Shown one piece after another: positions 23,927-59,832 of a DNA stretch of 64,000 nt. The notes beneath the pieces are model-generated. The model had not been told where the DNA came from, made no database searches, and saw only the letters and a list, made by a program, of their open reading frames with translations. A program made the position numbers and the translations under genes. Every line of letters begins with the position of its first letter. The first letter of the stretch is position 1. The stretch is from Nemertoderma westbladi (Eukaryota > Animalia > Xenacoelomorpha), in the NCBI GenBank assembly GCA_032718475.1, contig JAUCBJ010004074.1, forward strand, positions 3,984 to 67,983, given 5' to 3'.

Positions 23927-24125
23927 AATAGTCATAAAGAAATACAATACGAACATTCTTCATACTTTATCATATTTGAAAATTATAATGTGCAATTAAT
24001 TACACTAAACAATATAACATATTGTTTACTGTATATTAGTCATTTTTTGAAATTTTTTAAATGCAATAATGTATAACCCCACGTGGTGAAGGTTATGATT
24101 TGAAACTATTAGTTTCAAGGGGGAG

Positions 24126-24576
24126 TGTCATAAAATATATATATTCAAGTAGGGAAATAAAGTTTGTTTTCGTTAATGATTTAATGTTAATGTGCATAGT
24201 ACAGTAGTTGGCAACAGCAGGGGTTCATTGACATCAACTCATACATTATATCATTGATATACATACAGTATCGTCTATATTATTAACTATTGTTTGTACA
24301 ACGCTAGAATTACCTCATCGTTTGGAAGACATGCCCCTGCTGTTCGTCCTAATTAAAAGGGTCAATTAGTATTGCTACAATAATAGGAGTATACATATAG
24401 TGTTGGTGCGGTGATGGTAAAACCAGTTGCTAATTGTCGTTGTAATATGTGTCATTTTTGTAATTAGTTAGTTAATTATTAAATTAGAGAAATATGTAAT
24501 CATAATATTGTGTTTTTTAAACTGTTCATGGGCGGTTCAACAATCAGAAGAATATACATTCATCCCGTTCATGACA
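24126..24576 (+). repeat. 3' LTR of element B (451 bp)
   Basis: Preceded by the PPT AAGGGGGAG (24117-24125). Confidence 0.97.
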
Positions 24577-25028
24577 GTATGAGAGCAATATCGCACGAAG
24601 CAATGTCAGTGTGAAGAGGCAAGTCGTTTCCAAGGTCTACCCAGAGCTTGGTTTAGCCGAGACACGAGGATCTGAACTTTGCATTCCTAATACTCTGCCT
24701 ACCAATAATACTTGAATATAGTAGTGGCTTTATTGTACTTTAATAAGTACGGACATTTCATCTTACTGTAGTTACGTATTTATAATATGATACGGACAGT
24801 AAGGAAAAGAAAGAATTATTTCTCGCCGTCGCACTAAATATATAATATAAGTAATTACGTACGCAATAAACACGAATATATTGCACTATTCTACTAAATA
24901 ATAGCTAAATAATATTCTACTAAATTAAATAAAACGATTATAATAAAATTACATAGCAATACATACATAAATATAAAAATAATAAAATAATATAAAATAA
25001 TAGAGTCACACGCCCACTCCGAACGATA

Positions 25029-28000: not shown

Positions 28001-31000
28001 TGGAAGGGCTTGAGATTATCCCAAAGGCCTGGATGGTCATCCAGTACTCCACCGGTTTCTGGTTGAGGTCTCCTTCGGGCCACCACAGAAATCGTAGACT
28101 ATCTCGATCCCTATCTAACACCTTGACTTGTAAGAACATGCCTTCTATATCGGAGGCGAAAGCAATCGAATATTGTCTCAATCTTAAAAGAATTCCCAAC
28201 AAAGATTGAAGCAAGTTGGGTCCGGGTAACAATTCAGAGTTAAGGGATTGACCCATGTAAAGAGCGGAGCCATCAAACACTACTCTCACTTCATGTGGTT
28301 TACCGGGTTTAGGAACGTAATGGTGAGTTAAGTAATACGTTCTTTCAGTCACAGGTGTTTCTTCCGGTACTCTCTCCGCGCATCCCTTACTAATAAATTT
28401 CTCCAGCTGTGTTTGATACATTGCTTTAGCTGAAGAATTAGCCGTAAGGCGTCGATGGAGTTGCGCGATTCTTTTTTCCGCCAAGGGTCTGTTATTGATG
28501 AATTTCGGTTCTCTCTTGCGGAAAGGTAGACCGACTTCATACCTACCTTGATCTTTGAGGAAACGTGTAGTTGTCTCTTGGATCTGCTTGGCCCTTTCCT
28601 CTTCCACTGACAAGGCTTTATCGTAGGAATTGGGCTCTACCGCCTCTTGCGTAAAGAATCGTACGGCATGTTCATCTCGAGTCTTGGCATTACAACGCTC
28701 AATGACGTCATTTAACTCTTCGTTATAAGCTTCTCGTTCAGTTGGATAAAGAAGTTGACATAAGTTCACTTGGTTTTGCCAAGCCTCGATTTCCTTAAGG
28801 AGGTCGATGGTATTCTCCTCATCAAAAAGCTGGTGCACGTCGTCGTTATCTGAGGAGTATGGGGTTCCCTCAGTTAAATCGTCTCCCTCACTAGTATCAT
28901 CTTCCCATTCACTCACCTGGTAGACGCGATCTTGCGGTAGTCTTTCTCTGAGTGTTCTACGGGAAGGGCCAGTAAAGTACCAACCTACTCTAGTTCTTAC
29001 CGCATAGGTCTGTAGTGGCTGCGGTTGAGCAGGCCGTTTCTCCAATGTCTCCAGCGCCTCATGCGCGTTTTGGCCGAGGAGTATTTGCACTCCAGGATAA
29101 TCAGTCTGGAATCGAGGTATCTTAAGATGTTGGATGCTCTCATCCTCGTCCCAATTATAAAGGTCTACTTGAGTAGTAGCGAAGTTCTTTATAGCCACCA
29201 ATTTCACTGACCTTATGCTATGTTCTCCTAGTTCGTCTTGTGGGGTGGACAACGCGCCTACATAATAATCAGCTGTTACTGTAGATTTCCAAACTTGCAT
29301 AATGCCTGACATATTTAGCTTGGTTCGGATCTTAGGTTGTCCAGCGAAGATGTCTTCGGCTAGTTCTTTATCAATGAATGTTCCTGTGCTGCCGGAGTCC
29401 AGGAGGGCGTTCACTATATAGCTTTTCTGAGGTCCATGGACCCGTAACTGGACTACAGGAAATTCTCGGATTCCTACATTGGAAGTTGGTGCTTTCCACG
29501 ATGGTTGTCGCTCAGAAGTAGTTAGAGTGAAGTCGCTGTCTGTATCTTTTTCATATGTGAGTGCTCGATACACTGCGGTATTTATCATGTAACAGGATTC
29601 GTTTTCGTCGGAGAACTCGTCCGTATAGAATCCTTCCATCTCAGATTGATCAGTGTCGTTCACATCACTGAATTGGACATGTAGTTCGGAATCACTTACC
29701 TGATTAGGACTATTTCGATCGAATTCAGCGTGCAACAAGATATGATGTTTCGCACCACACTTTGCACACCTTATGTCTGAGTAACAGGTTCGCCGTTGAT
29801 GTCCTTGTCTGAGGCAATTATAACACAACCGCTTGTCCCACATGACTTCACGTCTCTCAGTTAATGATTTCTTTAGAAATTCATCACACATATTCAAACG
29901 ATGGGTCCCATCACATAGCGCACATTTTGGTTTGATGTTACTCACCTTAATCTGAGTCACATTGTGCACACTTGCCTTTTCTTTGGGCTTTCTCACCTGA
30001 ATTCTCTTGGGAGACGTAGGAGGAGTTTTTCTTACCTGTTCTCTCCTGTCATTTGCTCGAGACTTGAATTTACTTACCTGATCTTTAGGCATTTTATTGA
30101 CATAATAAGATCTATCAGTGTCTTTCCCGCTATCTTCTCCTTGAGAAGTCTGGCTTTCGCCGTCGTCTGTATAACACACTGGTGTTACCTTTCTTCTGGA
30201 GACGGGTTTTTCACTTACCTTGTTTTCCGGTGTCTTCTCTCTGGACAGTTTCAGGAGCTGTAATTTCACTTCTCCATCTAGGAATGACATGAGATCAGCC
30301 ATGGTAGGGTCTCGTCGTTGTTGTTCCATCATATATAACACTTTCTTATCCCAGCGTGTACCTACTCCACCCTTCGGTAAAGTAGAAGCCACTGCTCTAA
30401 TAACCATAGTGTTCTGATACTCATGAGACTTACCTAGCCAATCTAATTGTCTGCAGATCTCCTGGATCTCATCGGAAAACTCGATAATCCCGCTGCTAAT
30501 AAACTTTCGGGGCGCTACTAACTTTGCATACAAATACCCAGCGATGTTATTCCTATTACCATACCTGATGTTTAATGTATCCCAAACTTGTCTTAATCCG
30601 TCTGGATGTCCAATAAACTTTAACGCCATTAACTTGGGAGATCCTTCCAAGCACTCGATGAGGTATCTAAGTTTCTCTCCATTAGATAGTACAGAGTTCT
30701 GTATGTTATCTTTGTAATATTCATTAAAAGGTAACCATTTCATCTCATCCCCATTGAACTTGATGATCTCTCCCACCTTCACCGCTTGCCGGGCTTCGGT
30801 TCTAGCCATTTGACACGTAAAACTTTCTTGGGCCATCGTGTTATTTAATATCGAGTTATCGGTATATAAATTTCTCGGATTATGATCAGGTCTATAGGGA
30901 ATGTCATTATCAACAGGTCTATAATTACCCTTAATAGGGTTCACTATAGGAGTTTCTACTTCGCTAGCAGTATATATGCGTGTAGGCTCCACACCTTGCG

Positions 31001-33182
31001 CATGAGATACTTCAGACCTAACAGGTTGACACATTGTTACCGAGGGTGGTGGTATACCCTTTTGAGTATTTACTAATTTATCGCATTCTAGCGCGATACT
31101 TTGCTGCACTTCTTGCAACTCTAGTCTACTTTCCCTTACTGTGCCCTTGAATTGCTGAACAGTCTCCTGCATCTGCCCGAGCAGGAGATCCATCCCCCGC
31201 TGTCTCTCGTCCACCCATTCGACCGCCGAAGCGGGAGTCGCCAACGTTGTAGCGGGCGGACGAGGGACCACGGGCGACAAATCAGGAATATTTCGCTCGG
31301 GATCCAGGACCTGAACTGTCTCCTGGGCAGTTCTACTGGGCACAGGTAGCTTAGTGCTATGTAGAGGGAATTTAGAGTTAGCTTAAGGGAGCACAGGTGT
31401 GTCTATCACCGAAGGGGTGATTTCAAAAACAGGCCTAATTATTTCAGGCTCATCTACTATAGTAGGGAGTCTTTCTATTTTAATTATTTGGTCTGTAGGT
31501 TCTGTACTACCTAAGTTGGTGTTATTTAGTTGCCTTCTAACAGCTGGAGGCAAATCAGGCAATTTCTGACGGTGGAATGTTCTTTTACGTCTACTTAGAC
31601 GAGATCTATTTCCCTTGCCTTCAGTATCGGTGGTATCGCCTTCCTCAGATGATGTATATCCCTGTCTTTTGGGAGTAGATCGATTCATCATCTGCATATT
31701 ACTAGCTGTTAACTGTTTATTTATGCAGTCTTGATTCTCCTGAATGTTTTCCAATTCTAATTGGGTGGTTTCTTCAGTCGCTCTCCGTTCGGCTTCTGCC
31801 ACTGCCTCTGCGGCCTTTCTTTCAGCCTCGGCCGCCTTTGCTTCTGCCGCTGCCGCTGCCGCTTTTGCCTCTGCCGCTGCCTCTGCCGCCTTTGCCTCTG
31901 CCGCTGCCGCTTTTGCCTCTGCCGCTGCCGCTGCCGCTTTTGCCTCTGCTGCTGCCTCTGCCGCTGCCGCTTTTCTTTCTGCTTCTGCAGCTACCACTGC
32001 TGCTTTCTTTCTGTCTTCTATACGTTTTTTCTTTACTTGTTCCTCCTGGACTCGTGTGATGCGGAGTTGTTCATCAAATTTAGCCTGGTTCGCAGCCCTC
32101 ATTTCCACATCGATGGCATCCAACACAAGCTTGGTTCCTTCACTATTAGGGCTAAGTCCCTCTAACCTTCTCCTCAACTCGTCATCACCTAAAAAACGTT
32201 GATAGTCTGACAGATAGATGTCAATGGCATCCCTCTTATGCGGCTTCTCTGCCGTCGCTTCACTTTCCACTTGGGAAAAAGTAGCGTCTGTTGATTCTCC
32301 ATGGGTTGAGCGCTCCTCTAGCTGAGCTTTCCACTGAGCTGTTCCTTGAACCTGGAGACTCACCCTTTGAAACCAAGTCTTTACGGCAACTTGCAACGAC
32401 GTGTCTTGTCTTCGTTTAGAAGCTTCTTCAAAGGCCGATAAAATTAGCCTGATTCGCAGAATTCTTTCTCTAACTTGATAAAGCAGTTGTCCCTGCTCTT
32501 GAGGTCCTTGTGGTTGTTGAAACAGTTGTCCTTTTACTCGCTCCATAGAGCTGAAGAATCCCTGTGCGTATCCGGCTGCGGACCTCTTCCACACAGCTGG
32601 ATCTATAGTTTCCTTGGCTACTCCCATCCGGTGTATGTCTTCCCAGGCAGCTTCTGATAAATCAAACGGGAGTCCGGGTCCGGGGAAGTTCCATTGCGAC
32701 TCGACAATAGACTTCAGTTCTTCACTCGTGTATCCCGCATAATTATCTTTAGTTGATCGTTGACTTCTCGCCCAATCGATCTGGTGTTCTTCCACTGCAA
32801 TCAATAACCTAGTGAGTACGGCTGCAGGAAGGATGAGAAGGGGATCCGAATAAACCGCTTCCGTCATCTTTGCTCCGCGCTCGGGTGTCAGCTCTACAGT
32901 ATCCTCACTACTGGAGCTGTTGGGCCGTTGAGAAATAAGTTCTTGGCTAGCGGGTTGTTGCTGTTCTGCTGCTTCTTGGTCCCGCTTGACCTGAGCTCGA
33001 GTGCCTATGATAGACCTACGATGTTGGACCAGCCTAGGTTCTGTTATTACTACTGGAGGGATGACCTTCCTCACAGTGGGAGGTGAACTGAACTTAGGTG
33101 TAGACGGTTCTACACCTTTATCTGAGTCGCAGATAGTTACATCCAATAAACTGTCTGACAGGTTCTGCTTAGTATCAGACAT
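25029..33182 (-). CDS. Gag-Pol polyprotein of A1 (~2,717 codons) with one in-frame TAA at 31383-31385
   Basis: ORFs 33182-31383 and 31343-25029 share a frame, and A2 has GAA at the stop. Motifs: Pao Gag (KFNGDEMKW..KLRYLIECLEG), knuckles CALC/CYNC/CAKC, PR LLDSGS, RT YMDD, RH HVFGDAS..RAEL..WTD, IN H..H/CIPC, DLFGP, SDKGTNF, WERLI. Confidence 0.93.
31785..32005 (-). repeat. Ala-rich (A)EAKAA coding repeat in the Gag N-terminal extension
   Basis: gccgctgccgcttttgcctct-type repeats; shorter version in A2 at 46200-46295. Confidence 0.9.
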
Positions 33183-34541
33183 GTTTGTTTACACAGTTGA
33201 ATGTCTACCGCTATATTACAGTCTAAGCAAGTCTAGTAATTCAGTGTTAACTGCTAGCCTAGTAATTAATTACCGATACTGCTACTCAGTGTAGCGTGAT
33301 ATATATATAATATATTAGAATACCGGTATGCTTATAGTATATATAACTATATAAGTACTATTACAGACTAGGTTTATCACAGAATACCGGTATAATTTTA
33401 GCACAAATATATATAAATATATAATAGGCCTATCGGGAATACCGGTATACAGCTTACAGTTTGTAGTATATATAATTCTGGACTAGAATTAATTACAAGT
33501 ACCGGTATAATTTCAGCCTAAGTTTATAGAAATAAAGATAATAGGCCTATTGTAAATACCGGTATATCAATTATTTTAAATAACTGAATTTCTGAATTTC
33601 AAGGGTTACTTGGTTACTTTAACTTACTTTATTACCGTTATTTAAGCAGTAGTCCAACTGATATTGAGACCTAATTGTTGTATGGCAGGCCTACTATTTA
33701 TAAATCGTTAGATTTGATTTATAATATATATATACCCGTTTTAATGGGTTTTGTCAATTGTTTGAAATAAATGTTATTATTTCTGGGGAGTAATCACTAC
33801 ACAAAGCGGTGCGCTTTCAGTGAAGTGTTACTTATAGGACACTAAAACAAATAATACTAATTTACCTAAGTTACTTAATACTACAAATTACGTACAATTC
33901 GGGTGAGATTACAATCTCTAAATAAACACAAAAATTTACAAAAAACACAAAATCCGAATTTACAGGGTAATTTTACAAGAAGTCTACAAACCAGCCTAAC
34001 AAAGGGTTAGAAATCTGGTTATTACAACGGACAGGGTACTGCGGTATTTGAAAATAATACGTAGTAGTAAATACACTGCGTTGTCCAGATAGGAAAATAC
34101 CACCGCCTGACGACCTATAGCCGTATCGCTATAGGTACTACGTTATGTATCACGGAGTGTTCCTACCTAGAAGTTAATAGAGCTAATCGAACGTGCCTAT
34201 CAACCACTTTACAACACAAATATAATGCCTACACTAATTACTTTCGGAAAGCACTGTACACTAAACCCTAAATTAGGTACGAGTACTTGTACAACAGATA
34301 ATCAGTAGTTAAATATACTTGAACAGCTAAAAGAACCACGGCATCTGCTGGAGTGACCGATGCACAAAATCACCAGTCTTTACCTACGCCAAGCAGCCCG
34401 TGTAGTACCGGGGTTAATTTAACTATAGCGGTATGTATAACAAACACAATTACTGTAGGAACAAACTTGGGGAATGAATGTTGCGAATAATCGCATAAAC
34501 TCTGAATAATAAATATTACGCTATGCGTAAAAACCACTCAA

Positions 34542-35080
34542 ACAAAATGCAGACCAAATACTGACAGACTACCATCAAGCCTAAACAAACTACGGTATAT
34601 GCAGACTCCGAAATGATTAGGTAGTATGCGTTCTAACCCAGTAGTACGACTTATTCTTTAGTTGGGGGTTTACCTTACAGCAATGGCTGCCCCTACTTCC
34701 TAACCGTTCTTTATCGGACAGATGCTTTACACACACCGAAATCCGTTCAGACCTAATAGCAGCCAGACAACTATCCAGCCTACAAATTATCTAAATAAAT
34801 ATTATACGCTACCCGTACAGACTACACAAACAAAGTACAGACTAAACGATGGCAGACCACTCTCAAGCCTAAATAAACTACAGGACATGCAGACTCCGAA
34901 ATGATTAGGTAGTATGCGTTCTAACCCAGTAGTACGACTTATTCTTTAGTTGGGGGTTTACCTTACAGCATTGGCTGCCCCTACTTCCTAACCGTTCTTT
35001 ATCGGACAGGTGATCTACACACACTGCAATCCGTTCAGACTTAACAGCAATCAGACAGCAGCCCAGCCTACAAATTGTCT
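34542..35080. repeat. ~288-bp tandem duplication in the A1 leader
   Basis: Near-identical core gcagactccgaaatgattagg...tttatcggacag at 34601 and 34889. Confidence 0.9.
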
Positions 35081-35433
35081 GTACAATATGATCAGGCTTA
35101 CACGCCTTCTGTTCAATACTGGCCTACAAATAAATAAAACTGACAGAAATAAGTAAGCTCCAAAAGAAACAAGGGGTGTAGAGTCCCTAATCTCTTAAAC
35201 AGCCTACCGGTATACAATAATCAAATCGAATAATACTAATGTACTTATACAGGAAGTACCGGTTAGGACAGTTAGGCCTACGGACCTACAGAAGTACCGG
35301 TTCTGGCAGTTGGACCTACGGACCTACGGCAGTACCGGTTCTGGCAGTTGGGCCTACTGACCTACAGATGTACCGTTCAGGTTTACCGGTTGACCGGTAC
35401 TTTCAACTGTATTGCTTACTGCAATAAAGAAGC

Positions 35434-35445
35434 TATATCCGTTAT
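35434..35445 (-). promoter_or_regulatory. Non-canonical PBS position of A1 (ATAACGGATATA), complementary to its own LTR
   Basis: Directly follows the 5' LTR terminal CA and has no TGG. It is the exact reverse complement of the element-strand 12-mer at 36174-36163. Confidence 0.6.
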
Positions 35446-36611
35446 TGTTTGCGCTTTCAGACCTTTGGCAGTTTAACCCGCCAAATTATGATGTCTTCTA
35501 GATAATAAATCACTTTTAGCCTATGACAAGTATTTAATTCACTACACTAGTCGAAACCAATCTGTGCGCGATCATTCACCCGCTGGATATACCCGGGAGA
35601 TTGGGTTCGACGGCTTAATCTTATTGCTATGTAAGCTTAATGTATTATTCGACTGACAGTATTATATAATCTATGACAATATTATTCACCTTCGGGGAAT
35701 ATTAACAGTTCCTTTAGGACGTGGCGCTCTATCTATATAAACAGAGTTATGACTTAAACTACTCACAACGATATGGCTTAGTTATAATTCACATATATGG
35801 CGCATTCTTTAGGAAATGCTTCGTTATCAGTCTCACTCATACACAATGCTGCACAATACTGCACACTGATCTGCCGATCTTCACTGATTTTAGTTATATA
35901 TAAAAGGAACACGGACCGACTCATGTAGGGTCTATCAAATAACATTAGATTCACTTCAAACCACTTTAACATAAGTCACAATCGTTATATGTAACCTTTC
36001 TCTCTTACCTTCGGTATATCAAGAATATTGGGTTTCGGGGTTATTTATCGTTATTCCAAATATAATAATTCATCAACCATATTATGAAGAACTGACAGTA
36101 AATAGCAGTATAACAATAGAAAGACCAAACATCAGTTTGATAAATCAGTTTGGTTTGTTTTGATAACGGATATATGTCCTTATAATTAAGCCTACTAGTG
36201 TTAGACTAAAACAGAAAAGCACAAAATATTTCCAAGCCGTTCTCTCCTGGCTCAGGACAGAAAGACCAACAACACTAAAAACTGATAAGAATAACCTTAT
36301 TTACAAAATCTTCCACCCACCACAGAGAATGAGCATACAGATAGGAAAATTCAGTTCAGTAGATCTGTGATAGGTCGAAATCAAAACCAACTCAAATCCT
36401 ATTGGCAGATACAGAAAGCAGGGCTGTGGGGCAACCTTCCCAAGCTGGTTGGACGATCAAACGTAGCCCAGATCCCTTCGCACAGCAAATCAGCCAATCA
36501 GCCGGTAGCTTGCACTATTCGAGTTATAGATCCCTTTTTAGAGTATTCCAGCGCCTGGGGGGAACTGGTTAGCAAGGCAAACGAATCAGTTATCCCACAA
36601 AAGCTTTTACA
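35446..36611 (-). repeat. 5' LTR of A1 (1166 bp)
   Basis: TGTAAAAGC...GCGCAAACA on the - strand; direct repeat of 13645-14810. Confidence 0.97.
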
Positions 36612-45017: not shown

Positions 45018-48000
45018 ATGTCTGATACAAAGCAAAACCTGTCAGACAGTCTCTTAGATACAACCATCTGTGACCCAGACAGGAGTGTGGAAAGTGTGAG
45101 ACCGAAGTTCAACTCACCTCCTACTGTAAGAAAGATCATCCCTCCAGTAGTAGTATCAGACCCTAGGCTAGTCCAACACCGTAGGTCTATCATAGGCACT
45201 CGGGCTCAAGTCAAGCGGGACCAAGTAGCAGCTGTTAAACAGCAGCAACACTCGAGCCGAGAACTTATTTCTCAGCGGCCCGACAGCTCCAGTAGTTCGG
45301 ATACTGTAGAGCTTACACCCGAGTGCGGAGCAAAGATGGCAGATGCGGTTTATTCGGATCCCCTTCTCATCCTTCCTGCAGCCGTACTCACTAGGGTATT
45401 GATTGCGGTGGAGGAACACCAAATTGATTGGGCGAGAAGTAAGCGATCAACCAAGGACAGTTATGCGGGATACACCAAGGAGGAACAGAAGTCTATTGTC
45501 GAGTCGCAATGGAACTTCCCCGGACCCGGACTCCCGTTTGACTTATCGGAAGCTGCCTGGGAAGACATATACAGGATGGGAGTGACAAAAGACACTAGTG
45601 ATCCAGCTGTGTGGAAGATGTCAGCAGCAGGGTATGTACAGGGATTCTTCAGCTCTTTGGAGCGATTAGAAGAACAACTGTTTCGACAACCCCAAGGACC
45701 TCAAGAGCAGGGAGAGCTGCTTTATCAAGTTAGAGAAAGAATTCTAAGAATCAGATTAATCCTATCGGCCTTTGAGGAAGCTTCGAAAAGAAGACAAGAC
45801 ACGTCGTTGCAAGTTGCCGTCAAAACTTGGTTCCAGCGGGTGAGTCTCAGGGTTCAAGGAACGGCCCAGTGGAAATCTCAGCTGGCTGAGCGCCCAATCC
45901 ATGGAGAATCAACAGACGCTACCTTTTCTCAAGTGGAAAGTGAAGCGACAGCAGAGAAACCGCATGAGAGGGACGCTATTGACATCTATCTGTCAGACTA
46001 TCAACGATTTCTAGGTGATGAAGAGTTGAGGAGAAGGCTGGCTGGACTTCGCCCTAATAGTGAAGGAGCCAAGTTTGTGTTGGACGCAATATATGCGGAA
46101 ATGTTAGCTGTGAACCAAGCTAAATTTGATGAACGCCTCCGCATCGCTAGGGTCCAAGAATAACAAGTAAGGAAAAAACGTATAGAAGACAGAAAGACAG
46201 CAGCAGCGGCAGTGGCAGCGGCAGAAGCGGAAAGAAAGGCGGTAGAGGCAGCGGCGGAGGCGGAAAGAAAGATGGCAGTGGCAGAAGCAGAACGGAGAGC
46301 GTCTGAAGAGACCACCCAACTAGAGTTGGAAAATATTCAAGAGAATCAAGACTGCATAAATAAACAGTTAACAGCTAGTCAAATGCAGATGATGAGTCGA
46401 TCTACTCCCAAAAGACAGGGATTTACATCATCTGATGAAGGCGATACCACCGATCCTGAAGGCGGAGGAAATAGATCTCGTCTAAGTAGGCGTAGAAAAA
46501 TGTCCCACCGTCAGAAATTGCCTAATTTGCCCCCAGCTGTTAGAAGGCAACTAACTAGCACAGACTTAGGTAGTACAGAACCCACAGACCAAATTATTAA
46601 AATAGAAAGACTCCCTACTATAGTAGATGAGCCTGAAATAATTAGGCCTGTTCTCGAAGCCACCCCTTCGGTGATAGAGACACCTGTACTCCCGGAACCT
46701 ACCTCTAAATTCCCTTTGCACAGCACTAAACTACCTGTGCCCAACAGAAACGCCTCTGAGACAGTTCCTGTCCTGGACTCCGAGCGAAATATCAACGATT
46801 TGTCGCCCGTTGTCCCTCGTCTACCCGCTACTATGTTGGCGGCTCCCGCTTCGGCGGTCGAGTGGGTGGATGAGGGACGGCGGGAGATGGGTCTCCTGCT
46901 CGGGCAGCTGAGGGAACACCGTTTGTGTTCCTCTCAGCAGGTCTGGGAGATGGAAGGGACTGTTCAGCAGTTAAAGGGAACAGTCAGAGAGGGTAGGTTA
47001 GAGTTGCAAGAAGTGCAGCAGAATATTGCGTTAGAACGCGATAAATTGGTAAATATACAAAAGGGTATACCACCACCCCCTGTAACAATGTGTCAACCTG
47101 TTAGGTCTGAAGTATTTCATGCGCAAGGTGTGGAGCCTACACGCATCTATACTGCTAGTGAAGTAGAAACTCCTATAGTAAACCCTATTAAGGGTAATTA
47201 TAAACCTGTTGACAATGATATTCCATATAGACCTGATCATAATCCGAGAAATTTATATACCGATAACTCGATATTAAATAATACGATGGCCGAAGAAAGT
47301 TTTACGCGTCAAATGGCTAGAACCGAAGCCCGTCAAGCGGTAAAGGTGGGAGAGATCGTCAAGTTCAATGGAGATGAGATGAAATGGTTACCTTTTAATG
47401 AATATTACAAAGATAACATACAGAACTCTGTGCTATCTAACGGAGAAAAACTTAGATTCCTCAACGAGTGCTTGGAAGGATCTCCCAAGTTAATGGCGTT
47501 AAAGTTTATTGGACATCCAGATGGACTAAGACAAGTCTGGGATACATTAAACATCAGGTATGGTAATAGGAATAACATAGCTAGGTATTTGTATGCAAAA
47601 TTGGTAGCGCCCCGAAAGTTCATTAGCAGCGGGATTATAGAGTTTTCCGATGAGATTCAGGAGATCTGTAGACAATTAGATTGGCTAGGTAAGTCTCATG
47701 AATATCAGAGTTCTATGGTTATTGGAGCTGTGGCCTCTACTTTACCAAAGGGTGGAGTAGGTACACGCTGGGACAAGAAAGTGTTATATATGATGGAACA
47801 ACAACGACGAGACCCTACCATGGCTGATCTCATGTCATTCTTGGATGGCGAGGTAAAACTACAGCTCCTAAAGCAGTCCAGAGAGAAGACAACGGAAAAT
47901 AAGGTAAGTGAGAAACCCGTTTCTAGGAGAAAGGTAACACCAGTGTGTTATACCGACGACGGCGAAAGCCAGGCTTCTCAAGAAGAAGACAGCGGGAAAG

Positions 48001-51000
48001 ACACTGAAAGATCTTACTATGTCAACAAAACGCCTAAAGACGTAAGTAAATTCAAGTCTCGAACCAATGACAGGAGAGAACAGGTAAGAAAAACTCCTCC
48101 TACGTCTCCTAAGAGAATTCATGTACGAAAGCCTGAGGAAAGAACGAGTGTACACAACGTTACTCAGAATAAGGTAAGTAACATCAAACCGAAATGTGCG
48201 CTGTGTGACGGGCCCCACCGTTTGAATGTGTGTGATGAATTCCTAAAGAAATCATTAAAAGATAGACGTGAAGTCATGTGGGATAAGCGGTTGTGTTATA
48301 ATTGCCTCAGACAAGGACACCAACGGCGAACCTGTTACTCCGACGCAAGGTGTGCAAAGTGCAGCGCAAAACATCATATCTTGTTGCACACTGAATTCGA
48401 ACGAAACAGCCCGAGTCAGGTAAGTGAGTCCGAACTACATGTCCAATTCAGTGATGTGAACGACACTGACCAAAGTTCTGAGATGGAAGGATTCTATACG
48501 GACGAATTCTCCGACGAAGACGAATCCTGTTACCTAATAAATACCGCAGTGTATCGAGCACTTACGTATGAAAAGGACACCGACATTGAGCCCCCCCTAA
48601 CTACTCCCGCCCGACAACCATCTTGGAAAGCACCAACTTCCAATGTAGAGGAGTCCGAGAATTTCCCGTAGTGCAGGTGAGAGTCCATGGGCCACGAAAA
48701 AGTTATATAGTGAACGCCCTTCTTGACTCCGGTAGGTTGGTACTTTACTGGCCCTTCCCGTAGAACTCTCATGGAAAGGTTACCCAAAGAACGGGTCTAC
48801 CAAGTAAGTGAATGGGAAGTGGAGAGCAGTGAGGTGGACGACCCAACTGAGGGAACACCATACTCCTCAGATAATGACGATATCTACCAACTCTTTGACG
48901 AGGAGAATACCATCGACCTCCTTACGGAAAACGAAACTTGGCAAAACCAAGTGAACCTATGTCAACTCATTCGTCCATCAGGACAAGTCAACTATAACGA
49001 CGAACTGAATGACGTGATAGATCGCTACAACGCGAAGACTCGGGATGAACACGCCGTACGATTCTTTACTCAAGAGGCTGTAGAGCCCAATTCCTACAAT
49101 AAGGCCCTATCGGTAGAAGAAGAAAGAGCCAAGCAGATCCAGGAGACAACTACACGTTTCCTTAAAGATCAAGGTAGATATGAAATCGGTCTACCATTTC
49201 GAAAACGGGAACCTAAATTCATAAACAACCGACCCTTGGCGGAGAAAAGAATTGCGCAACTACATCGACGCCTTACGGCAAATGCTTCAGCTAAGGAAAT
49301 GTACAAGATTCAGTTGAAGAAATTTATTAACAAAGGATATGCGGAGCGAGTACCGGAAGAAACACCCATAACTGAGAGAACGTACTATCTAACACATCAT
49401 TACGTTCCCAAACCCGGTAAACCCCATGAAGTCCGTGTAGTATTTGACGGCTCCGCCCTCTACATGGGACAATCACTTAATTCCGAGTTATTGCCTGGAC
49501 CCAACTTACTCCAATCCTTGTTGGGAATACTCTTAAGATTACGACAATATTCGATTGCTTTTGCTTCGGATATAGAAGGCATGTTCTTACAAGTTAAGGC
49601 GCTGGAAAGGGATCGCGACAGCCTATGATTTCTGTGGTGGCCTGAAGGAGACCTCAATCAGAAACCGGTGGAGTACTGGATGACCATCCAGGCTTTTGGG
49701 ATCATCTCAAGCCCTTCAAACGCCTGCTCAGTGGTGCGAACCACTGCTGATGACAACCGGGACGCCTTATCTAAGGAGGTGATCGGCAACATCAAACGGG
49801 ATATATACATGGACGACAATTTAAAGTCCCTCCCATCAGTGGAAGAAGCCATTGACGTCGCCAAAGGGACGGTAGAGTGCTTGAAAAGAGGTGGATTTCG
49901 ATTGACTAAATTCACCAGCAACTCCCGTGAGTTTCTGGAATCGATTCCAGTAGAAGACCGAGGAGCGAAAGATCTAGACCTAATCAAGGACGATCTTCCA
50001 GAAACCAAGACTCTTGGTTTGAAATGGGACACAGAGAGAGATATCCTGTTTTTTCAGCTAAAACAGCGAGATAATCCAGTTCGGACTAAACGGATTTGTC
50101 TAAGTATCCTGAGCACTTATTTCGATCCATTGGGATTTATTAGCCTAGTTATATTGATTGCTCGGAGTTTAGTACAACAAATGTGGCTTGAAAACCACTC
50201 ATGGGACGATCCACTCAAAGGAGAACTCTTAAAGAAGTGGATGAAATGGGAAGATTCTCTACCATCCATCGAGAACTTTATAATTTCCCGTTCATATTTT
50301 GGTCATGTTCTCCCTACTTATTCCTATCAACTCCATGTGTTTGGAGACGCCAGCGATATGGGAATAGGTATAGTAGCCTACCTGAGAGTTGAAACTCCGG
50401 ATGGAATCAAAGTCGCCTTGGTTACCTCTAAGGCCTTGATTAACAACAAGTTGAAGGTTCCTCGAGCGGAGTTAAAAGCGGCTCTATACGCTACAGCCAT
50501 CGGCCGGAATGTAACAGAACAGATCGACTATCCACTGGAGAAAACTGTTTATTGGACCGATGCTTTACTCGTGTTGGAGTATATAACCAATGAAGTCTGT
50601 CAGTTCAGCGTCTTTGTTACTAACAGAGTAGCCATTATTCTTAGTCACACGAAGATAGATCAATGGAGACATTGCCCCGGAACGATTAATCCAGCAGACA
50701 TCGCCTCCAGGGGAGCAACTCCACAAGAACTGATAGATACTCCAGACTGGTTAGGTGGACCCGACTTCCTAAGCAAAGAAGAGGATGAATGGCCTCCTCA
50801 TCTTACTACGGCAGAGATTAGGCAGGCCAAGGGAGCGGAGAAAGTCAAACCTAAAACCCGGGCGAGTAAATCGAAGTTATTTAAACCTGTGATAGATCTG
50901 TCTGTACTACACACTTCCGGAGACGACGCTTTGGATCTGAAACCCCCAGCCACAAATAAGTCTGTTGTGGAAATTCGAGAGAGAGATTGGAAATCTGGAA

Positions 51001-52691
51001 TACCAGACGTCTCGCAAGGACTCTCATCTCTCCTGCGGGGAGCGATACATCACTATAGTTCCTGGAATCGGCTCTGTAAGGCCGTTACATATTTAAAGCG
51101 ATGTTTTCATCATCACTACTCCAGGACGAAGAACACTAATGATACCGCTCCACTGACATCTGCGCAGGTCCATGTTGTTAAAGATCTTCCCAAATACAAG
51201 ATATCCGACAGGTTTCTGAAGGAGAAGATCAGTTACCAGGAGCATGAAGAAAGCAATAAGCAGATACTGAGACTCCTGCAATGCTATGAGGATTCCGATA
51301 AGTATTTCCTGTTGTTGAGAAATCCACAGATGCGCTTAAGGGATCGTTTCTCTAGCACAATGATAGATGGGTTAATACGCGTTGGAGGAAGACTAACTAA
51401 TGCTCCATTATCCTTTGACACTAAGTTTCCCATACTCATTAGAAATCTTGAAATACAAATCAAGATGATTGTAGATGTTCACAGTAAGCTTTATCATGCT
51501 GGTAGAGAACGAGTTCTTAGCGAAATTCGAACCCGCTATTATTTTTATAAACCCCGTAGAGCTCTGAACCAAGTTCTTAGGAACTGCATACCCTGTAGGA
51601 AAGCATTCAGTAGGCCTTTAACACAGCGAGAGGCAGAATTACCTAGGGAACGAGTAAGCTTCTATGAACCACCCTTCACTAATACCGGTGTAGATTTATT
51701 TGGCCCTATTGAAGTATATCGTGCTAGGACTATAGTCAAGAGATGGTGTGTCATCTTTGTTTGTATGACTTGTAGAGCTATCCATCTCGATATGGTGAAC
51801 GATTTATCTACTAACAGCTTCCTATTGAGCTTACGCCGACAGATCGCTCGCTTTGGAACTAGTAACACGATGAGATCTGATAAGGGAACAAACTTCATTG
51901 GTGCCAACAATGAAATCAAGGCTTACGTCAAAGATTGGAACCAAAGACAGGTGGACGATCAGCTAAGAATAACAGCGTCTAGCTGGACCTTCAACGCCGC
52001 CGACGCCCCTTGGTGGGGAGGAAGTTGGGAGAGATTAATCAGGAGCGTGAAGACCGCATTTCACTTTATAGTGCCGTGCCGCGCGTATCTCACCGACGAA
52101 CTTTTGCGGACGTTAATGGAGGAAATCGCCGCCTATCTCAACGAGAGACCGCTTATGCCAGTCTCATCGAGTCCCGATTCCCTGGAAGCGCTAACACCCG
52201 CGCACTTCCTACTGAAAAAACCTGTAGCCATGCTCCCACGATCGGAAATCACAGACGGAGACGAATACTGCCGGCAAACTTGGCAACTTATGCAGTTGTT
52301 ATCCCGTCGTTTCGCTGACCATTTCGAAAAACATTATCTGCCCACGCTACAACTTCGAACTAAGTGGTTTGCGCAGCAAGAAAACGTCAGCGCTGGAGAC
52401 ATGGTCCTTATTGTGGATTCAGACCTTCCACGTAAGCGGTGGCAGACAGGTCGTATCATCGAGACTCATATCTCGGATGATGGTTTGGTGCGATCGGTAG
52501 AACTCGTCGTCATGCGACGTAACTTTAAGAAACCGGGAATTGTCTTCGAGACACAGCAACTCAATCGCCCAGTTGGTCGTTTATGTTTACTGGAAAGAGA
52601 CAGAGAACTCTCCGGAAACTATGGAAGGCAAGATACTCTTCCCACGACCACCTCCCTAATCCAACAAACATCTAGGGACTCCCCAACGTAA
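45018..52691 (+). pseudogene. Gag-Pol of A2, disrupted
   Basis: TAA at 46161, frameshift at ~48648, ~400-bp deletion right after the protease DSG (~48732), TGA at 49626. RT/RH/IN otherwise closely match A1. Confidence 0.93.
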
Positions 52692-53244
52692 CAGCGTCTG
52701 GAGTGGGTGTGTGACTATATTATTTTATATTTGTTCTTATTATTTTATATTTATGTATGTATTATTATGTAATTTTATTATAATCGTTTTCTTTAATTTT
52801 ATTTAGTAGAATGTTATTTTAGCGATTATTTAGTAGATTAGTGCAATATATATTCGTGTTTATTACTTAATTACTTATATATTATATATTTAGTGCGACG
52901 GCGAGAAATAATTCTTTTTCTCTTTCCTTACTGTCCGTATTACATTATAAATACGTGACTACAGTAAGATGAAATATCCGTACTTATTAAAGTACAATAA
53001 AGCTCCTACTATATTCAAGTATTATTGGTAAGTAGAGTATTAGGAATGCAAAATTCAGATCCTCGTGTCTCGGCTAAACCAAGCTCTGGGTAGACCTTGG
53101 AAACGACTTGCCTCTTCTCACTGACATTGCTTCGTGCGATATTGCTCTCATACCGTATATTAAATAATACATATAGTAGCGTGATGTCCCTTTAACAGTA
53201 GCGTATAACGCAAAATAAATCTGTTAAACCCTTTGACCATCTGT

Positions 53245-53531
53245 AATTCTAGTCGATTAAGATATCGCGGCACCCACCGATATACTTGAAAGACAAAATT
53301 CTAGAATCAGTGGTTAACGTCCCCAGACATGTTCTGGAATAAACCGGTGCCCATCCTAAATATTAACTATTAATATTTATAAAATCTGTCAAATTTCAGA
53401 TCCTTTAAAATTCTAGTCGATTAAGATATCGTAGCACTTACCGATACTCTTAAAAAGACAAAATTCCTAGAATCAAGGATCCCAGTCCCCAGACATGTTC
53501 TGGAATAAAATTGTGTCTATTTTAATATTAA
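53245..53531 (+). repeat. Two ~120-bp stem-loop-forming repeats (period 164) in the pol-ORF3 spacer
   Basis: aattctagtcgattaagatatcg...gtccccagacatgttctggaataaa at 53245 and 53409; also in A1 at ~17025-17325. Confidence 0.85.
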
Positions 53532-54331
53532 ATAATAAAATTTACGGGAATAAATTCTAATTCATCTCTTTTAATGAATTTGATAAATTGTCATTTTATA
53601 CAATTTATAACATTCCCAAAATTCCATTAATTAATAGATCATGGGAGCGGAGATTCACCCTATTAAGTGTATTAGTGTGCGAGAATCTCCAATAGATAGT
53701 CAATAGCCGATAAAATTTATAAAATCATGTATAAAGGGGATATTGACAATTAAAGAATTACTATTAAATAGCATCCCAGATCTGTATGCATGAGAATTAC
53801 CCTAATTCTACTGCTAGCTTTCCATAATGTCACCATAGCAACAACCACGCTAGAATTAGAAGTGAGTTAAAAGAACAATAGAAAGCTTGCCCCATTGAAT
53901 AGCATAGGGAATAAATAGCACACTGCTAGTATCCAAGGATACATAATAATAACGTGGCATTCTGGAAGGCACTGACTAACGGACAAATGGCCCGAATGTG
54001 TACAATTTGTGACAGTTGTGTGGAATTTGTGCGTTTATAGGTGAATGTTACTACTAAAGTGTGTTTACAGTAGCGAGTCGCAATTGTGAAAGTAGCCCTA
54101 ACTCTGCCAGTAAGAACCTGAAGTAAATCTAAGCCTTTGGGACGGACAGTGGAGTGACTTGTGCCGGTTATCGTTGTCGTTGTGTAGCTACTACGTTGGC
54201 GAAAAACACAGCGACGACGGTACATCGGCGCTGAGGATCTTGCACTGTCCGGGGGCAGAGAGGGGTAGGCAGCGACGCCCGCTAGCCTAAATATAAACTT
54301 ATTATAATATTAATAAACTCATATAGCAGAT

Positions 54332-57300
54332 ATGACTGAGTTGATAGAAGATGATCTTGGTATCAGGGAGCGATATACTCTACCTTTACAAGCGTTTGTT
54401 GATAGCTTGATACGCGGCGACGCTGGTCCAACTACTACGGAGGACGATGGTCGTTATATCGAACCGCCAATGTCCCAGGAGCAACTTACGCGTGAATTGG
54501 ACTATAGAAAATTCACCGCTCGCTATACGCATCGTAATGGTACGTATATGGACTTCTTAACTACTGGCCATCCTATCGATTTACACGATACGGACGATGT
54601 AGACACCGAAAGGGAAATGGTTTTATTTAAATATCATACCCAGCGGAGTCGGAACGATAAACCGAGAATAGAACACGAGAATTCTATTCGAAACCGACTC
54701 GAAAGAGAAGACGTTGAAGAGCCAGATAAACGCAGCGACTTCAACGATTATCTGGAATTCCTGAGAGAAACATATCTCAATATTGCCAGTCAACAAAATC
54801 TAGAAACTCGATATCCTCAAGGTATACATCATGACCCTATGATAGAACTCAAACGGCTCTATTTCACTATGATGTATCTTACCGCCGATCGACCGCTACC
54901 TGTCGTCCCAGATAGCTTCGAACAGATGGAGGAATATTGTAAAACTGGAGAACGATCACCCGCGTTTCCCCTGCAGGACATGCGTCTTTGGTATTACTGC
55001 GACGAATGCCCTAGACCCAATCAGCAAACGGAAAGACATAAACATCCGCGGAGACGTTGCGCTAAACACAGTTTTACACGATATACTTATGGGAGTTTCG
55101 AGCGAAACCTGTTCGATGTATCACCTACACTCGCTCGGCTCAAACGATCCTTAAATAAACCAATGATCAGAGTTCCGGAATACTCGGTCAGACCTCCTCA
55201 TTCCTTAGTGAGACCTCAAACGCTTGATCCTAATAGTATAACGGATCCCCCTGAACTGTACTCACTATTTAAAGATCTTGTGTTACCCGAACAATTAATC
55301 GGCGGCACTCCGGTAGTGGGCTCGCTAGATATTCGCCAACCCTACCTAGCCGGATTAGGACGCGGTCATCTAATATCGCCGTTTAACCCGTACAACCGTC
55401 CAGGCTTAACCCCGATACAACCCGTTACCGAAGTCGAAGAGAGCGTTGTACGATACGCGTTAGACGCTATTCGGCAGAAGATCGGAAAAGGAACTTACGA
55501 TTGTTTAGAGAAACGCAAATTGCAGCAACAAGTCCAAGCGGTGAAGGAATTAGCTTTACCCCAGTTCGATCGAGAAATCCAGAACCTCGAGGAAGACATC
55601 GAACGTGGACGAACCTATTCTCTACAAGAGTTCCTAGACGAGCGTTTACAACAACAAGCGGAGGAAAATCAGCTCGAGGAGAAACACATAGAAATGGATG
55701 AGAGAGAAGAAGCAGCTTTAGCCCAGCCAGAAGCTCAAATCCTTATGACGGATCTCTATTCTAAAACCATCATCCATCCTTCGATGGTTCCCCATTTCGG
55801 AGACAAACTCTTCGCCACGACACAGCCTCAACCGATTGATATCAACCTAAGATCTCGAAATCTTATCGCTGACGCTCCCATGTTGCAACGTCCGCCAATC
55901 GAGGCCGCTCGTGTCGATGGTATACTCGTTGAACCTCCGGACAATAGAGCGGATCTTGTCCGTCGTATGGTACACGAGGTTAACATACGCGCTAGACCTT
56001 TACCGAACTCGTTTTATGGGATTAAAGATCATCCTTATTATGTCAATCTAACGCAATATTACATGGTAAAACCTGAAGATCCTACACATAGTCTGAAGTT
56101 TCTACCACTAATAAATCCTCTCGATCTTGTCGAACTCGAACAACTACAGAAACATCTGGATCAGTTAGTGAAAGTAAACTCATTTCGAAAACCCTATAAT
56201 GTTTCCAGAATAGAGAAAGAGACAATACCTCCGTATAATCTTGATGGATTCATCAAAACTCGATTAGTCCACTGGAATCTCGACGTGTTATTCGAGGAGG
56301 AAAGAATACAACGATATGGAGATGTGGAAACATATACTACACAATATTTAAAGTATAGAGATCTACCTAATGCTAGCGAATGCGCTACCTTGTGGCATCC
56401 AGTGGGAATGACTCTAGAAAACGCCACTAAAGAGTGGAATGAGACTCTTAACGTTATCGAGATGTATGGAATTGTCACTTACGATAACGAAGGTAGCGTT
56501 CCGGTTGGAGAACTGGGAACTACGAGCATGATACATATACGAGGACTAGCTGGTTCTACCCACGTATTTACTCGAGCGTGTTCCGATGTGATTGATTATT
56601 CTTTTGAGACCCTTACCGAAATCCAAAGAAACTCTGACATGGACAATTCGAACTCGCGCAGCGTTACGTCACCGACACCGAGCGCAAACCGGCCACGGGT
56701 ATCGATGGATCGATGTTACCCCAGCCCGTGCTCGAGATGTTGTTTAACGAAAGAGTCCTTAAAATCGGCTCAGCTGTTTATGGAGATCTCCAAAATGACT
56801 TTCGGAACATGGAGAACATTCCATACCCTTTCGTCGATACTCAGCTGATTGCTCCCTGGGCAGAAGGCCGAGGTTTCTTCCGCACTATGTATGCAAATAC
56901 ACCCAGCGGCATCACTAAAGTACAACGAACCTCCATCGGACATCTTGCCTTTCAAGAATACGGATGGAATTTCAAGGTTGGAAATTCTATCAATTATCAA
57001 CAAGTATATGGAGATCATTATTCTCGATTATACTTTGACGGACCATTGACCGTACCTGGCGCTGTGTATAGCTTTATGAGCGTTCCACTTCGTCCCTCCT
57101 TAGCTATATACACAATCTTTGAAAACGCCGCACTTGCCGGTTGGCTAGCCGATGTGTGCAGTCGTACCATACGCGCCCATCCCTTAATACTTGGAACCAA
57201 ACTCGTCAAGCTAGATGAACACAATAAATTCATCCGCTTCGAATGTTTCAGGCGCTTTCTGACTCCGTTCCGTAACGTTGATAGTCAGTTCAAGGACCGC

Positions 57301-58584
57301 GCTCTGACTAAGCTCAGCCTAAGAGACTCAGCTGCGGAGAAGTTAGACAGCGCGGGATTCGCCCTTTTCAAGGACGTTTGTATACAGAACTTACATTCAT
57401 CTGTTATACAAAGACCTCGAATACCCACGGGTTATTCTGTCGTGGAAGTTCAGACAGTGGGTTCGCTTGCGGAGACATCCGCACCTACCTCAGCTATGCA
57501 ATTGGAAGACGAACCAATATGCTTAGAATCTGAGGAGATTCAGCCTACAGCGCCCCGGAGCAGCGATAACGACTACGTCTTGGAATGGTATCAAGGTCCA
57601 CAATGTATCACCGCATACGATTATCGGCACGCTAACTATGTTTCTCGAAAGCATTGCCGATTATGCGCATTGAGAGATCATTTCACCCCTATGGACTCAG
57701 ACGCACCCTGCTCCTATTTCCATGAACAACCGACGATGGAGATCTATTGTGCGTATTGCAGACTCAATAACTCGCACATTTTCGCAGTCTGCCCCCAATT
57801 TATGACTCAATGCCATCATTGTCAACTTAAAGGACATGCCAGTTTTGATTGCCCTTTTAACCGCGATCTGGAAAGCGTAGATGAGATGATTACCCTGCGC
57901 TACATCCGAGCTTGGGAAGCAAATGCGGATTTACATTGTGAGTCACGCCATCGCTATTACCCTGGACGCGCCTACGAAGGAGTTTACGCATTCCATCCTT
58001 ATCTATTCGCGTCTGTTGAACAAAAATCGCGCACACCGAGTTACGAACTAATGAAGCATATAGGTGAGTGTATTTCCACCAAATTTGTTCGTAAATATCT
58101 CAGGAACATCAATCCTAACGATATTAATTCATACAATTTGATTAATTTCGTCCGTCAAGACCCCGAGTATGGCGATTTGTTCATCAACTCGCACCCTGAG
58201 TTACAGGAAGTACATCGATGGCCCTACGAATATCGAGCCCGAGAAAGCGAGCTGGAAAGAACCATTAAACCGAGGAAGTTTCTCACCACTCGCGGTCCAC
58301 CTACCGCTATTGTCCAGACGACTCGTCAGGGACCAGTAGGAGCTGCGGTCCTAAGACGCACTCTAAAGGCTGTTAGACCTAGCTCCACTGAGGTTGATAT
58401 CGATCAACCCGGTACCTCGACCGGCGGATATACCGATCGTAATCCTAAACCTTCCGATGCAATTGTATTGCACCCTTCACCCAGGAGTTATAGCCCTCCT
58501 AGTAAAGTGGGTCGCCCGAAAGAGAAAAGGACTCGTGCTAGCCTCAAAAAACTGCGTAAACGCCGTCCGCGCAAGAAAGACTAA
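54332..58584 (+). CDS. ORF3 of family A (~1,417 aa when joined across a -1 shift at ~56640-56710): putative DEDDy 3'-5' exonuclease plus CCHC zinc knuckles
   Basis: ExoI-like IVTYDNEG (56471-56494), LPQPVLEMLFNERVLKIGSAVYGD (ExoII-like), FVDTQ, SIGHLA, PLRPSLAIYTIFE (ExoIII-like). Knuckles CAYCRLNNSHIFAVC and CHHCQLKGHASFDC. Basic tail. Lies between IN and the PPT. Confidence 0.75.
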
Positions 58585-58661
58585 CTGTTTAGAGTATTTT
58601 TATATTTTAGAAACTGTGATTTTTATATTTTATAGAATTAAATCCCATTTTCTGGGAGCGG

Positions 58662-59832
58662 TGTAAAGGCTTTTGCGGAATTAGCTAGTCATTTTCCCCG
58701 AAAAGTACTCTGTAGATGTTTTAACGGACATAAAAAGCCGTTTCCTTACTGTACCGGTGTTTTAGTGGACATAAAAAGCCATTTTTTTGTATGTGTACTT
58801 TAGCGGACATAACTAGCGATTTTATGTCGCAATACGCCAAAATACTCTTAATACAGTGTAGTTCAGATTACGACATCTATCAGCTGATTTAGTGTACTCG
58901 TGGAGCTTTCTTTGTTTGGCTCAGCCAATCAGAGCGATTTTCATTTTATTTGCACAGAAGCCTCCGGGAAATCGCGCAATGCATGATGGTTTATGTTTAC
59001 CTTTTTTCCTAATGCCAGAACATCGGCTGTGGAATTATCCTATGTTTCAGACTTTAGCCAAACATTAGAACGGCTTTGATTATAGAAACGTATAACTGTT
59101 ATCCTGTCATCCTGTCAAACTTCATAACATAACATATTGTCATATACAAACACCGCATTATTTTACTGCTATTTACTGTCGGTTATTAATTGTATCAGTT
59201 GATAGAATATTGTTATATTTGGATAATATCGATAAATAATCATAAAACCCCATCTTCTTGATATACTGAAGGTAAGAGACCGGTTACATATAGCAATTGC
59301 GACTTACATTATATTGGTTTTGGAGTGAATCTAATGCTATTTCATAGGCACTACATGTGTCAATTGCTGTTCTCTTTATATGTGACTAAAATTAGTGAAG
59401 GTCGGCAGATTGGTATGCAGCATTGTGCGGTAGTGTGCATGAGTGTGACTGATAACAAAGCATCTCCTAAAGAATGCGCCTTATACGTGAATCATAAGCC
59501 ATCCCGTTGTGTTTAGTATAAGTCATAACTCTGTTTACATATTTAGAGCGCCACGTCCTAAAGGAACTGTTAATATTTCCCGAAAGTGAATAATATTTGT
59601 CAGAGATTATATATTAACGATCAATCGAATAATACAGTAGGCCTACACCGCAATAAGGTCAGAGCTTCCGAATCCAGTCTCCCGGGTAAATCCAGCGGGT
59701 GAATGGTCGCGCATAGGCTGGCTTCGGCTAATGTAGTGTATCAAATACTCGTCATAGGCTAAAGTCGATTTATAACCTAGAAGACACCTAAATTTGGCAG
59801 GTTAAACTGCTAAAGGTCTGAAAGCGCGAACA
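58662..59832 (+). repeat. 3' LTR of A2 (1171 bp)
   Basis: TGTAAAGGC...GCGCGAACA. The 3' ~60% aligns with the A1 LTR; the 5' part is divergent. Confidence 0.93.

Follow-up and report, generated by a model that had tools for sequence, protein, structure and literature searches.

The question raised by this locus is why a long terminal repeat (LTR) retrotransposon should carry a third gene that is not an envelope (env) gene. The window analysed here, a stretch of 64,000 nucleotides from Nemertoderma westbladi (assembly GCA_032718475.1, contig JAUCBJ010004074.1, positions 3,984 to 67,983 of the forward strand), is animal DNA that holds satellites, intronless RING/B-box genes and three Bel/Pao copies, designated A1, A2 and B. 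In A2 an additional open reading frame (ORF), ORF3 (54332-58584, about 1,417 codons in total), sits between the pol stop at 52691 and the polypurine tract and 3' LTR. ORF3 is functional cargo of this family under purifying selection, less constrained than pol, and we regard it as very probably a cargo gene of exonuclease fold, in which a predicted nuclease domain is followed by zinc knuckles. Its parts are as follows.

54332..56620, + strand: first piece of ORF3, about 700 residues without a family match, then D-x-E (56483-56491)
56620..58584, + strand: second piece of ORF3 (stop-free frame 56638-58584), with the remaining nuclease domain, an acidic linker, the knuckle module and a basic tail
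56400..57170, + strand: predicted DEDDy-like 3'-5' exonuclease domain, with D, E, D and Y-x3-E, split by a frame break near 56,620
Motifs of the first part of the domain: YDNEG at 56480, LPQPV at 56716, VLKIG at 56755, YGD at 56779 and VDTQ at 56833
Motifs of the last part of the domain: SIGHLA at 56932, PLRP at 57085 and YTIFE at 57109
57652..58000, + strand: three CCHC-type zinc knuckles (57652-57850; the third canonical, the first two with altered spacing) and a conserved family-specific segment
58546..58581, + strand: basic C-terminal tail, kept in A1; the homologue P0003, described below, likewise ends basic

The initial annotation had described one sense ORF between integrase and the polypurine tract and 3' LTR; the place is right, but the gene is not a single open ORF and is broken in A2, where it occupies two overlapping sense frames, 54317-56848 (ATG at 54332) and 56638-58584. 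The break lies near 56,620 instead of at the junction of 56,637 first given, and it is the sole indel listed in the nuclease kilobase. All the contig depth that covers the site is without the break (452 of 452 in X4 and 20.6 of 20.6 in X5), which is therefore private to the A2 copy or to its assembly. The motifs first quoted were all located in the stated order (56480-57109), and so were the zinc knuckles, whose modules share 18 invariant columns across four aligned modules and which are separated from the nuclease by about 160-250 residues. The basic tail is a possible nuclear localisation or RNA-binding signal. The 19-residue hydropathy maxima of the two pieces are 1.07 and 1.19; ORF3 therefore has no membrane segment, in agreement with the earlier view that it is not env-like, and its acidic N-terminus makes a signal peptide doubtful. 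An env identity, which would call for a membrane anchor and fusogen homology, was rejected on this ground (maximum 1.19) and for want of a family match. The first piece has no match in Pfam, NCBIfam, PHROG or PDB.

An exhaustive search of the second piece against 1.84 billion protein representatives, among which there was no close cellular homologue of ORF3, returned two proteins, P0003 and P0004; the large protein collections were queried without the N-terminal 700 residues of ORF3. P0003 (expectation value (E) 1e-7, 648 residues, intact) carries D-x-E, K-x-G-x5-D, DTQ, Y-x3-E, three knuckles that match retroviral nucleocapsid knuckles (E 1e-4), the post-knuckle segment and the basic tail. 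P0004 (E 5e-4) has a degenerate nuclease, with D-x-K in the first motif, and two knuckle modules. Both are unnamed singletons, and neither has the long N-terminal region of ORF3. On the 3.7-kb contig of P0004, the one locus to which the 141 pattern matches of a metagenome scan came down, an intronless ORF is followed by non-coding DNA and the start of another ORF, with no pol; a retroelement setting is therefore established for neither homologue. Word-indexed protein searches, two of the three spanning proteins of 1,135-3,240 residues, found only P0003 itself, five scans of viral contigs gave no confirmed ORF3 relative, and the nuclease part had no significant match among plasmid, phage and PDB sequences.

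The Pfam check proposed in the initial annotation was unproductive, with no match on either ORF3 piece at E<=0.1, and the exonuclease assignment therefore needs profile methods. These support a predicted domain of the DnaQ/DEDDy type, nearest to the EXD2/WRN-like group and joined to zinc knuckles, which is where motif order alone had first placed it. Among 223 targets scored with a profile of 22 bacterial PF01612 domains, P0003 took the top rank (E 3e-4), followed by the second piece of ORF3 (E 0.01). Alignment to the bacterial PF01612 domains with hhalign gave 94.4% (score 52.6; the best score in 40 column shuffles was 16) over the first two motifs only, the third being assigned by register, and by subgroup EXD2-like domains reached 93%, RNase D 10% and Pol I 5%. 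An Rrp6/HRDC type was rejected on this RNase D value and the lack of an HRDC match. In a language-model search 28 of the 30 matches of the window domain were PF01612 (score 0.92), and a Rotifera cluster at 0.85 is at most a lead to the rotifer ORFs discussed below; the top match of P0003 was a Euglenozoa cluster that combines PF01612 with CCHC (0.86). The best NCBIfam match was RNase D (E 0.008), PF01612 scored E 0.2 and 11.9 bits on P0003, under the curated Pfam cut-off of 23.6, and a search with P0003 of five bacterial genomes did not recover their exonucleases.

The first motif, D-x-E after a hydrophobic strand, aligns in both the window and P0003 to the bacterial motif, and the second, K-x-G-x5-D, is present and aligned to the bacterial references. 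The third reads L-x3-Q/L-x2-Y-x3-E in ORF3 and P0003, against L-x3-Q-x2-Y-x3-D for the majority of nine bacterial reference sequences. In motif order and spacing ORF3 resembles the EXD2/WRN-exo/Mut-7-Nibbler/EXD1/Egalitarian group (PF01612), from which it differs by scoring below the Pfam cut-off, by an insertion of about 30 residues ahead of the third motif, by Y-x3-E and by being carried by a mobile element. The final E had been taken to make activity doubtful; since it is common to A2 ORF3 and the independent, intact P0003, it is not decay, which answers that doubt in part. We regard the enzyme as, on balance, somewhat more likely to be catalytically active than not. Single-sequence folding of the second piece was discarded (predicted local distance difference test (pLDDT) score 31), and for the model of P0003 the bacterial rows of the alignment were truncated ahead of the third motif. 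Residues 31-159 of this model are mostly confident, and fold searches with it returned EXD2, Egalitarian, TbRND, EXD1, Rrp6, WRN and Nibbler. EXD2 was the best structural match (Z 12.1, 117 residues, root-mean-square deviation 3.3) for a model seeded by bacterial exonucleases, and its rank may be owed to the bacterial sequences in the folding alignment.

Selection was assessed among variants picked by support, hence on a sample, and contig depth was not read as copy number. A variant was called private to A2 when at least 98% of the depth disagrees with the window in X1, X3 and X4, and segregating otherwise. Among the 40 best-supported of 252 variants at 56300-57300, four of which lay beside the break and were dropped, 24 of the 28 segregating variants were synonymous and only one of the eight private to A2 (Fisher p 3e-4); with an expected synonymous share of 0.23-0.30, 24 of 28 has a p of about 1e-9. 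Elsewhere in ORF3 the proportions were 13 of 14 segregating and 3 of 9 private (23 of 40 variants, themselves 40 of 1,526). None of the variants listed hits a catalytic codon, and a change at the final E confined to A2 would be near-total in share and should therefore have been listed. Between A1 and A2 the ratio of nonsynonymous to synonymous substitution rates (dN/dS) was 0.46 (0.25-0.84) and 0.28 (0.19-0.41) in two N-terminal blocks of ORF3 and 0.24 in the tail, compared with 0.05-0.08 in pol and about 1 in off-frame controls. Neutral evolution across the copies, which had been named as evidence that would count against the gene, is thus not what is found. The A2 copy itself is decaying. 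The idea that ORF3 is an ORF of the assembly only was rejected.

The sister copy A1 bears on how the gene acts, and B, nested within it, serves as an internal control.

13645..36611, - strand: sister copy A1, complete, with LTRs at 36611-35446 and 14810-13645 and a 5-bp target duplication
33188-25029, - strand: gag-pol of A1, with one stop
about 16222-14885, - strand: ORF3 remnant of A1, nuclease and knuckles gone
17420..24576, + strand: element B, a different Bel/Pao nested antisense in A1, with no ORF3 and an ordinary TGG primer site

That ORF3 belongs to the family, as first proposed, is borne out by this remnant and by the selection among copies. The remnant does exist at the same place, but without A2 55704-58431 (2.7 kb, the whole nuclease and knuckle region), and it has six further gaps, most of them frame-shifting. 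The pol of A1 is open and constrained, its LTRs (1,166 bp each) are 99.8% identical with 2 mismatches in 1,165, and its target duplication is intact; A1 therefore inserted recently. The damage to its ORF3 is far beyond what 0.2% LTR divergence allows after insertion, and nuclease-less lineages therefore move. In X3 a contig spans the deletion junction of A1, and in X4 and X5 the junction of another deletion, 54700-57504, is likewise spanned. Many thousands of contigs from four sequencing runs and two organisms map onto the element, and the family is therefore large. The nuclease-less lineages are either helped in trans or have no need of the enzyme; the nuclease likely acts in trans, and its dispensability in cis is easier to reconcile with a product shared among copies, for instance a suppressor of silencing, than with a factor at the core of replication.

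By their predicted Gag/Pol domains in protease, reverse transcriptase, RNase H and integrase order, A1 and A2 are Bel/Pao elements (Belpaoviridae): the Pfam domain order in both is DUF1759 (gag), a weak Asp protease, Peptidase_A17 (E 1e-35), H2C2 and DUF5641. Bel/Pao elements as described in PMC8742986 and PMC3118150 share with them the Gag/Pol domains and order, TG...CA LTRs (1.17 kb here, within the 0.2-1.2 kb of the group), the polypurine tract and a 5-bp target duplication. Typical members measure 4.2-10 kb in the ICTV profile (PMC8742986), and a complete element of the A1/A2 family would measure about 18 kb (18-19 kb when the parts of A1 and A2 are added; A1 is still about 16 kb once B is subtracted). 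Unlike typical members they have a third gene that is not env-like and, in A1, no tRNA-type primer site. They are atypical members by Pol, not non-members.

The closest published parallel, in the portions of the literature available, is the DEDDy-exonuclease ORF3 with a DEED motif that is carried by the bdelloid Juno and Vesta elements and Athena/Terminons (PMC5408684). The initial annotation had named such rotifer cargo and env-like extra ORFs in Bel/Pao, and both match the literature (PMC5408684, PMC8742986). As in Juno and Vesta, the A2 family has a predicted 3'-5' exonuclease of the DEDDy type where an LTR element would have env, without membrane or coiled-coil env features, and one acidic position is changed to E, the third in rotifers (DEED) and the fourth here (DEDE). 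Compared by description, A2 ORF3 differs in its host superfamily, Bel/Pao instead of the rotifer retrovirus-like clades, and in the three knuckles, the basic tail and the roughly 700 extra residues joined to the nuclease; purifying selection, demonstrated for ORF3 of the A2 family, is absent from the available text of the rotifer study. Three reviews name, in the parts available, only the rotifer case of a DEDDy ORF3 (PMC6431247, PMC6338049, PMC5718144). The Bel/Pao third genes described in PMC8742986 are env-like only, and the word 'exonuclease' does not occur in the available portions of PMC3118150 and PMC13524379. Neither a Bel/Pao exonuclease ORF3 nor a self-priming Bel/Pao was found in a literature search outside which Repbase, subscription journals and supplements lay. 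The union of an exonuclease with CCHC knuckles is termed very unusual in the paper on TbRND, the RNase D of Trypanosoma brucei, an exonuclease with CCHC knuckles that trims guide RNAs (PMC7797062, in part). ORF3 resembles TbRND in having a 3'-5' exonuclease domain and then several CCHC knuckles, whereas TbRND is cellular and mitochondrial, with four knuckles and a short linker, against the three knuckles and linker of about 160-250 residues in A2 ORF3.

By analogy with TbRND, we propose, as the likeliest of the readings weighed here, that ORF3 could be a trans-acting, knuckle-guided RNA 3'-5' exonuclease directed against host small silencing RNAs, a reading to which we give a probability of roughly 0.35-0.4. 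ORF3 would be made from a separate, probably spliced message; single-stranded RNA would be held by the knuckles and its 3' end passed on to an active site with two metals, like that of the trypanosome RNase D; small-RNA precursors would be over-trimmed or sequestered, so that silencing would be relaxed for every copy in the cell; and deletion derivatives would then free-ride on the nuclease from other copies.

Several points weigh against this proposal. All its steps beyond homology and selection are ones that we infer, and nothing points to silencing in particular. According to the rotifer study (PMC5408684), a part in silencing like that of mut-7 would limit itself, and 3'-end processing is the role preferred there. 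At the fourth acidic position E stands in place of D, and P0004 is without the catalytic residues yet has its knuckle module doubled, and the nuclease-knuckle architecture can therefore persist without catalysis. MAFFT alone aligned the third motif of the bacterial domains with a preceding stretch in which no acid is conserved. In the P0003 model pLDDT is below 50 over residues 201-251 and the helix of the third motif is of low confidence, so that the structural check envisaged in the initial annotation did not reveal clustering of the four acids; the match to the fold over residues 31-159 comes from a model seeded by bacterial exonucleases. The fold-search matches are partly circular, there being bacterial exonucleases in the folding alignment, and the inactive relatives Egalitarian and EXD1 stand near the top. 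The shared-feature count from ESM was 160, against 170 typical for true family members.

Some of these same observations would suit an RNA-binding adaptor akin to Egalitarian or EXD1, with weak activity or none, whose task would be the localisation, export or packaging of the element's long RNA. The E at the fourth acidic position, the degenerate site of P0004 and the high rank of Egalitarian and EXD1 in the fold searches agree with such a protein, as do the nucleocapsid-like knuckles and the roughly 700 extra N-terminal residues under selection. We nevertheless consider it unlikely: D-x-E, the D of the second motif and Y-x3-E are kept across 30% identity between ORF3 and P0003, which is unusual for a dead enzyme, and copies without the domain transpose.

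A different role, in making the primer for reverse transcription, is suggested by the region next to the 5' LTR of A1.

35434..35445, - strand: A1 primer-site position, 12 nt directly after the 5' LTR, a 12/12 complement of A1 LTR nucleotides 36174-36163
36163..36174, - strand: candidate self-primer site in the A1 LTR, present in both LTRs
59091..59102, + strand: A2 counterpart of the candidate self-primer site, 10/12 identical to that of A1

The TGG expected of the tRNA 3'-end primer site in the ICTV profile is missing after the 5' LTR of A1. A 12/12 complement was reached by 3 of 5,000 Markov-model LTRs, and of the 2,188 twelve-mers across the next 2.2 kb only two, one of them the primer-site 12-mer, possess an LTR complement of this kind. 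The candidate self-primer site ends a block that is conserved within the otherwise diverged U3-side of the A2 LTR. A1 thus likely displays a signature of Tf1-type self-priming, without a tRNA, on evidence from one element and a single primer site in the window. The primer cut of the Tf1 type is reportedly made by RNase H. In Tf1 and Tj1, as in A1, the primer-site position complements a short LTR stretch and abuts the LTR end (PMC4600332, in part). Those elements are Ty3/gypsy chromoviruses without an exonuclease gene, in which the site is the RNA 5' end, whereas that of A1 is a candidate located within the LTR by sequence; hairpin priming is mentioned for chromoviruses only in the available part of PMC3601003. 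Three side observations concern this region. The pairing of primer site and LTR in A1 is extendable by about 7 pairs beyond a small loop. The leader after the primer site (about 35430-35420, - strand) complements about 7 bases of a poly(A)-signal-like LTR sequence (about 35630-35620, - strand), and this pairing could mask that sequence in the A1 5' LTR. The P0004 contig (L001) has a 13-nt inverted pair at 2931-2943 and 3191-3203, downstream of the P0004 ORF, with the next ORF starting about 190 bases further on; that it reflects an ORF3-LTR-self-primer-gag order would fit but is unproven.

On this basis the exonuclease could shorten an RNA of the element from the 3' side as far as the 12-bp duplex of LTR site and primer-site position, leaving a 3'-OH for tRNA-independent priming. 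In favour are the missing TGG and the complement that starts at the first base past the LTR, the ordinary site of the ORF3-less B in the same window, the LTR block locally conserved between A1 and A2 and, weakly, the inverted pair of the P0004 contig. Against it, A1 transposed despite a dead ORF3, the Tf1-type mechanism uses a cut near the RNA 5' end (PMC4600332, in part), and the case is built on one element; we hold it to be rather improbable. Equally doubtful is the wider picture of a giant Bel/Pao lineage of about 18 kb that is self-priming, whose own knuckle-guided exonuclease would make the primer and be supplied in trans to nuclease-less sisters. If true, it would provide a primer-making enzyme encoded by a retroelement, and such cargo would form a broader class, so far unrecognised, with P0003 and P0004 as its markers.

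Nidoviruses use an exonuclease, and ORF3 might be a DNA-directed helper that proofreads or trims complementary DNA ends for the reverse transcriptase of a genome of about 18 kb. The nearest group is EXD2/WRN-like, members of which can act on DNA, and the element is of 18-19 kb as against 4.2-10 kb in the ICTV profile (PMC8742986). The knuckles, however, suggest RNA, and a replication cofactor would be needed in each particle, yet A1 lost the nuclease while about 16 kb long without B; this role is, to our minds, a poorer prospect still. That ORF3 is a recently captured host gene or chance ORF in neutral drift with coincidental motifs is very improbable and largely refuted, for although Pfam is silent and single-sequence scores are weak, the synonymous excess is strong, there are no introns, the homologues share the full nuclease-knuckle-tail layout and no close cellular homologue exists among the proteins searched.

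The remaining features of A2 lie around ORF3, its 5' LTR and primer site being outside the window.

45018..52691, + strand: gag-pol of A2, decayed, with stops and one frame change
52692..54331, + strand: pol-ORF3 spacer of A2, 1.6 kb, non-coding, containing a direct repeat (53245-53379/53409-53544) and, right before the ATG, a possible splice acceptor
58654..58661, + strand: polypurine tract of A2, the same in A1
58662..59832, + strand: 3' LTR of A2, TG...CA, 1,171 bp

The pol-ORF3 spacer is 83-100% identical between A2 and A1 over the compared part, 53149-54331, and contains an antisense frame of 127 codons (54309-53930, - strand). Gag has an N-terminal extension with alanine-rich repeats upstream of DUF1759 (44985-46163 and 33188-31383), and the 5' leader of A1 (35445-33182, - strand) is 2.3 kb long, with a 286-bp duplication at 34508-35080 and short repeated units. 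The LTRs of B, with 3 mismatches and a 4-base gap in about 455, are more diverged than those of the surrounding A1 (2 in 1,165), a hint either of joint movement of the whole 23-kb composite or of homogenised A1 LTRs. The RING/B-box (TRIM-like) intronless genes are duplicated, at 35-1894 and 38285-40164 (95-98% identical, the second copy frame-shifted), and 38-bp satellite arrays lie at 9365-10960 and 59833-60705, the latter adjoining the A2 3' LTR.

Little is known in animals about the counter-defence and accessory enzymes of retrotransposons, and the DEDDy ORF3 of rotifers has remained an oddity. The A2 family brings such cargo to a second superfamily and adds a signal of selection and natural nuclease-less sister lineages. 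The use that retroelements make of a 3'-5' exonuclease thereby becomes testable, since silencing, priming and proofreading each predict something different.

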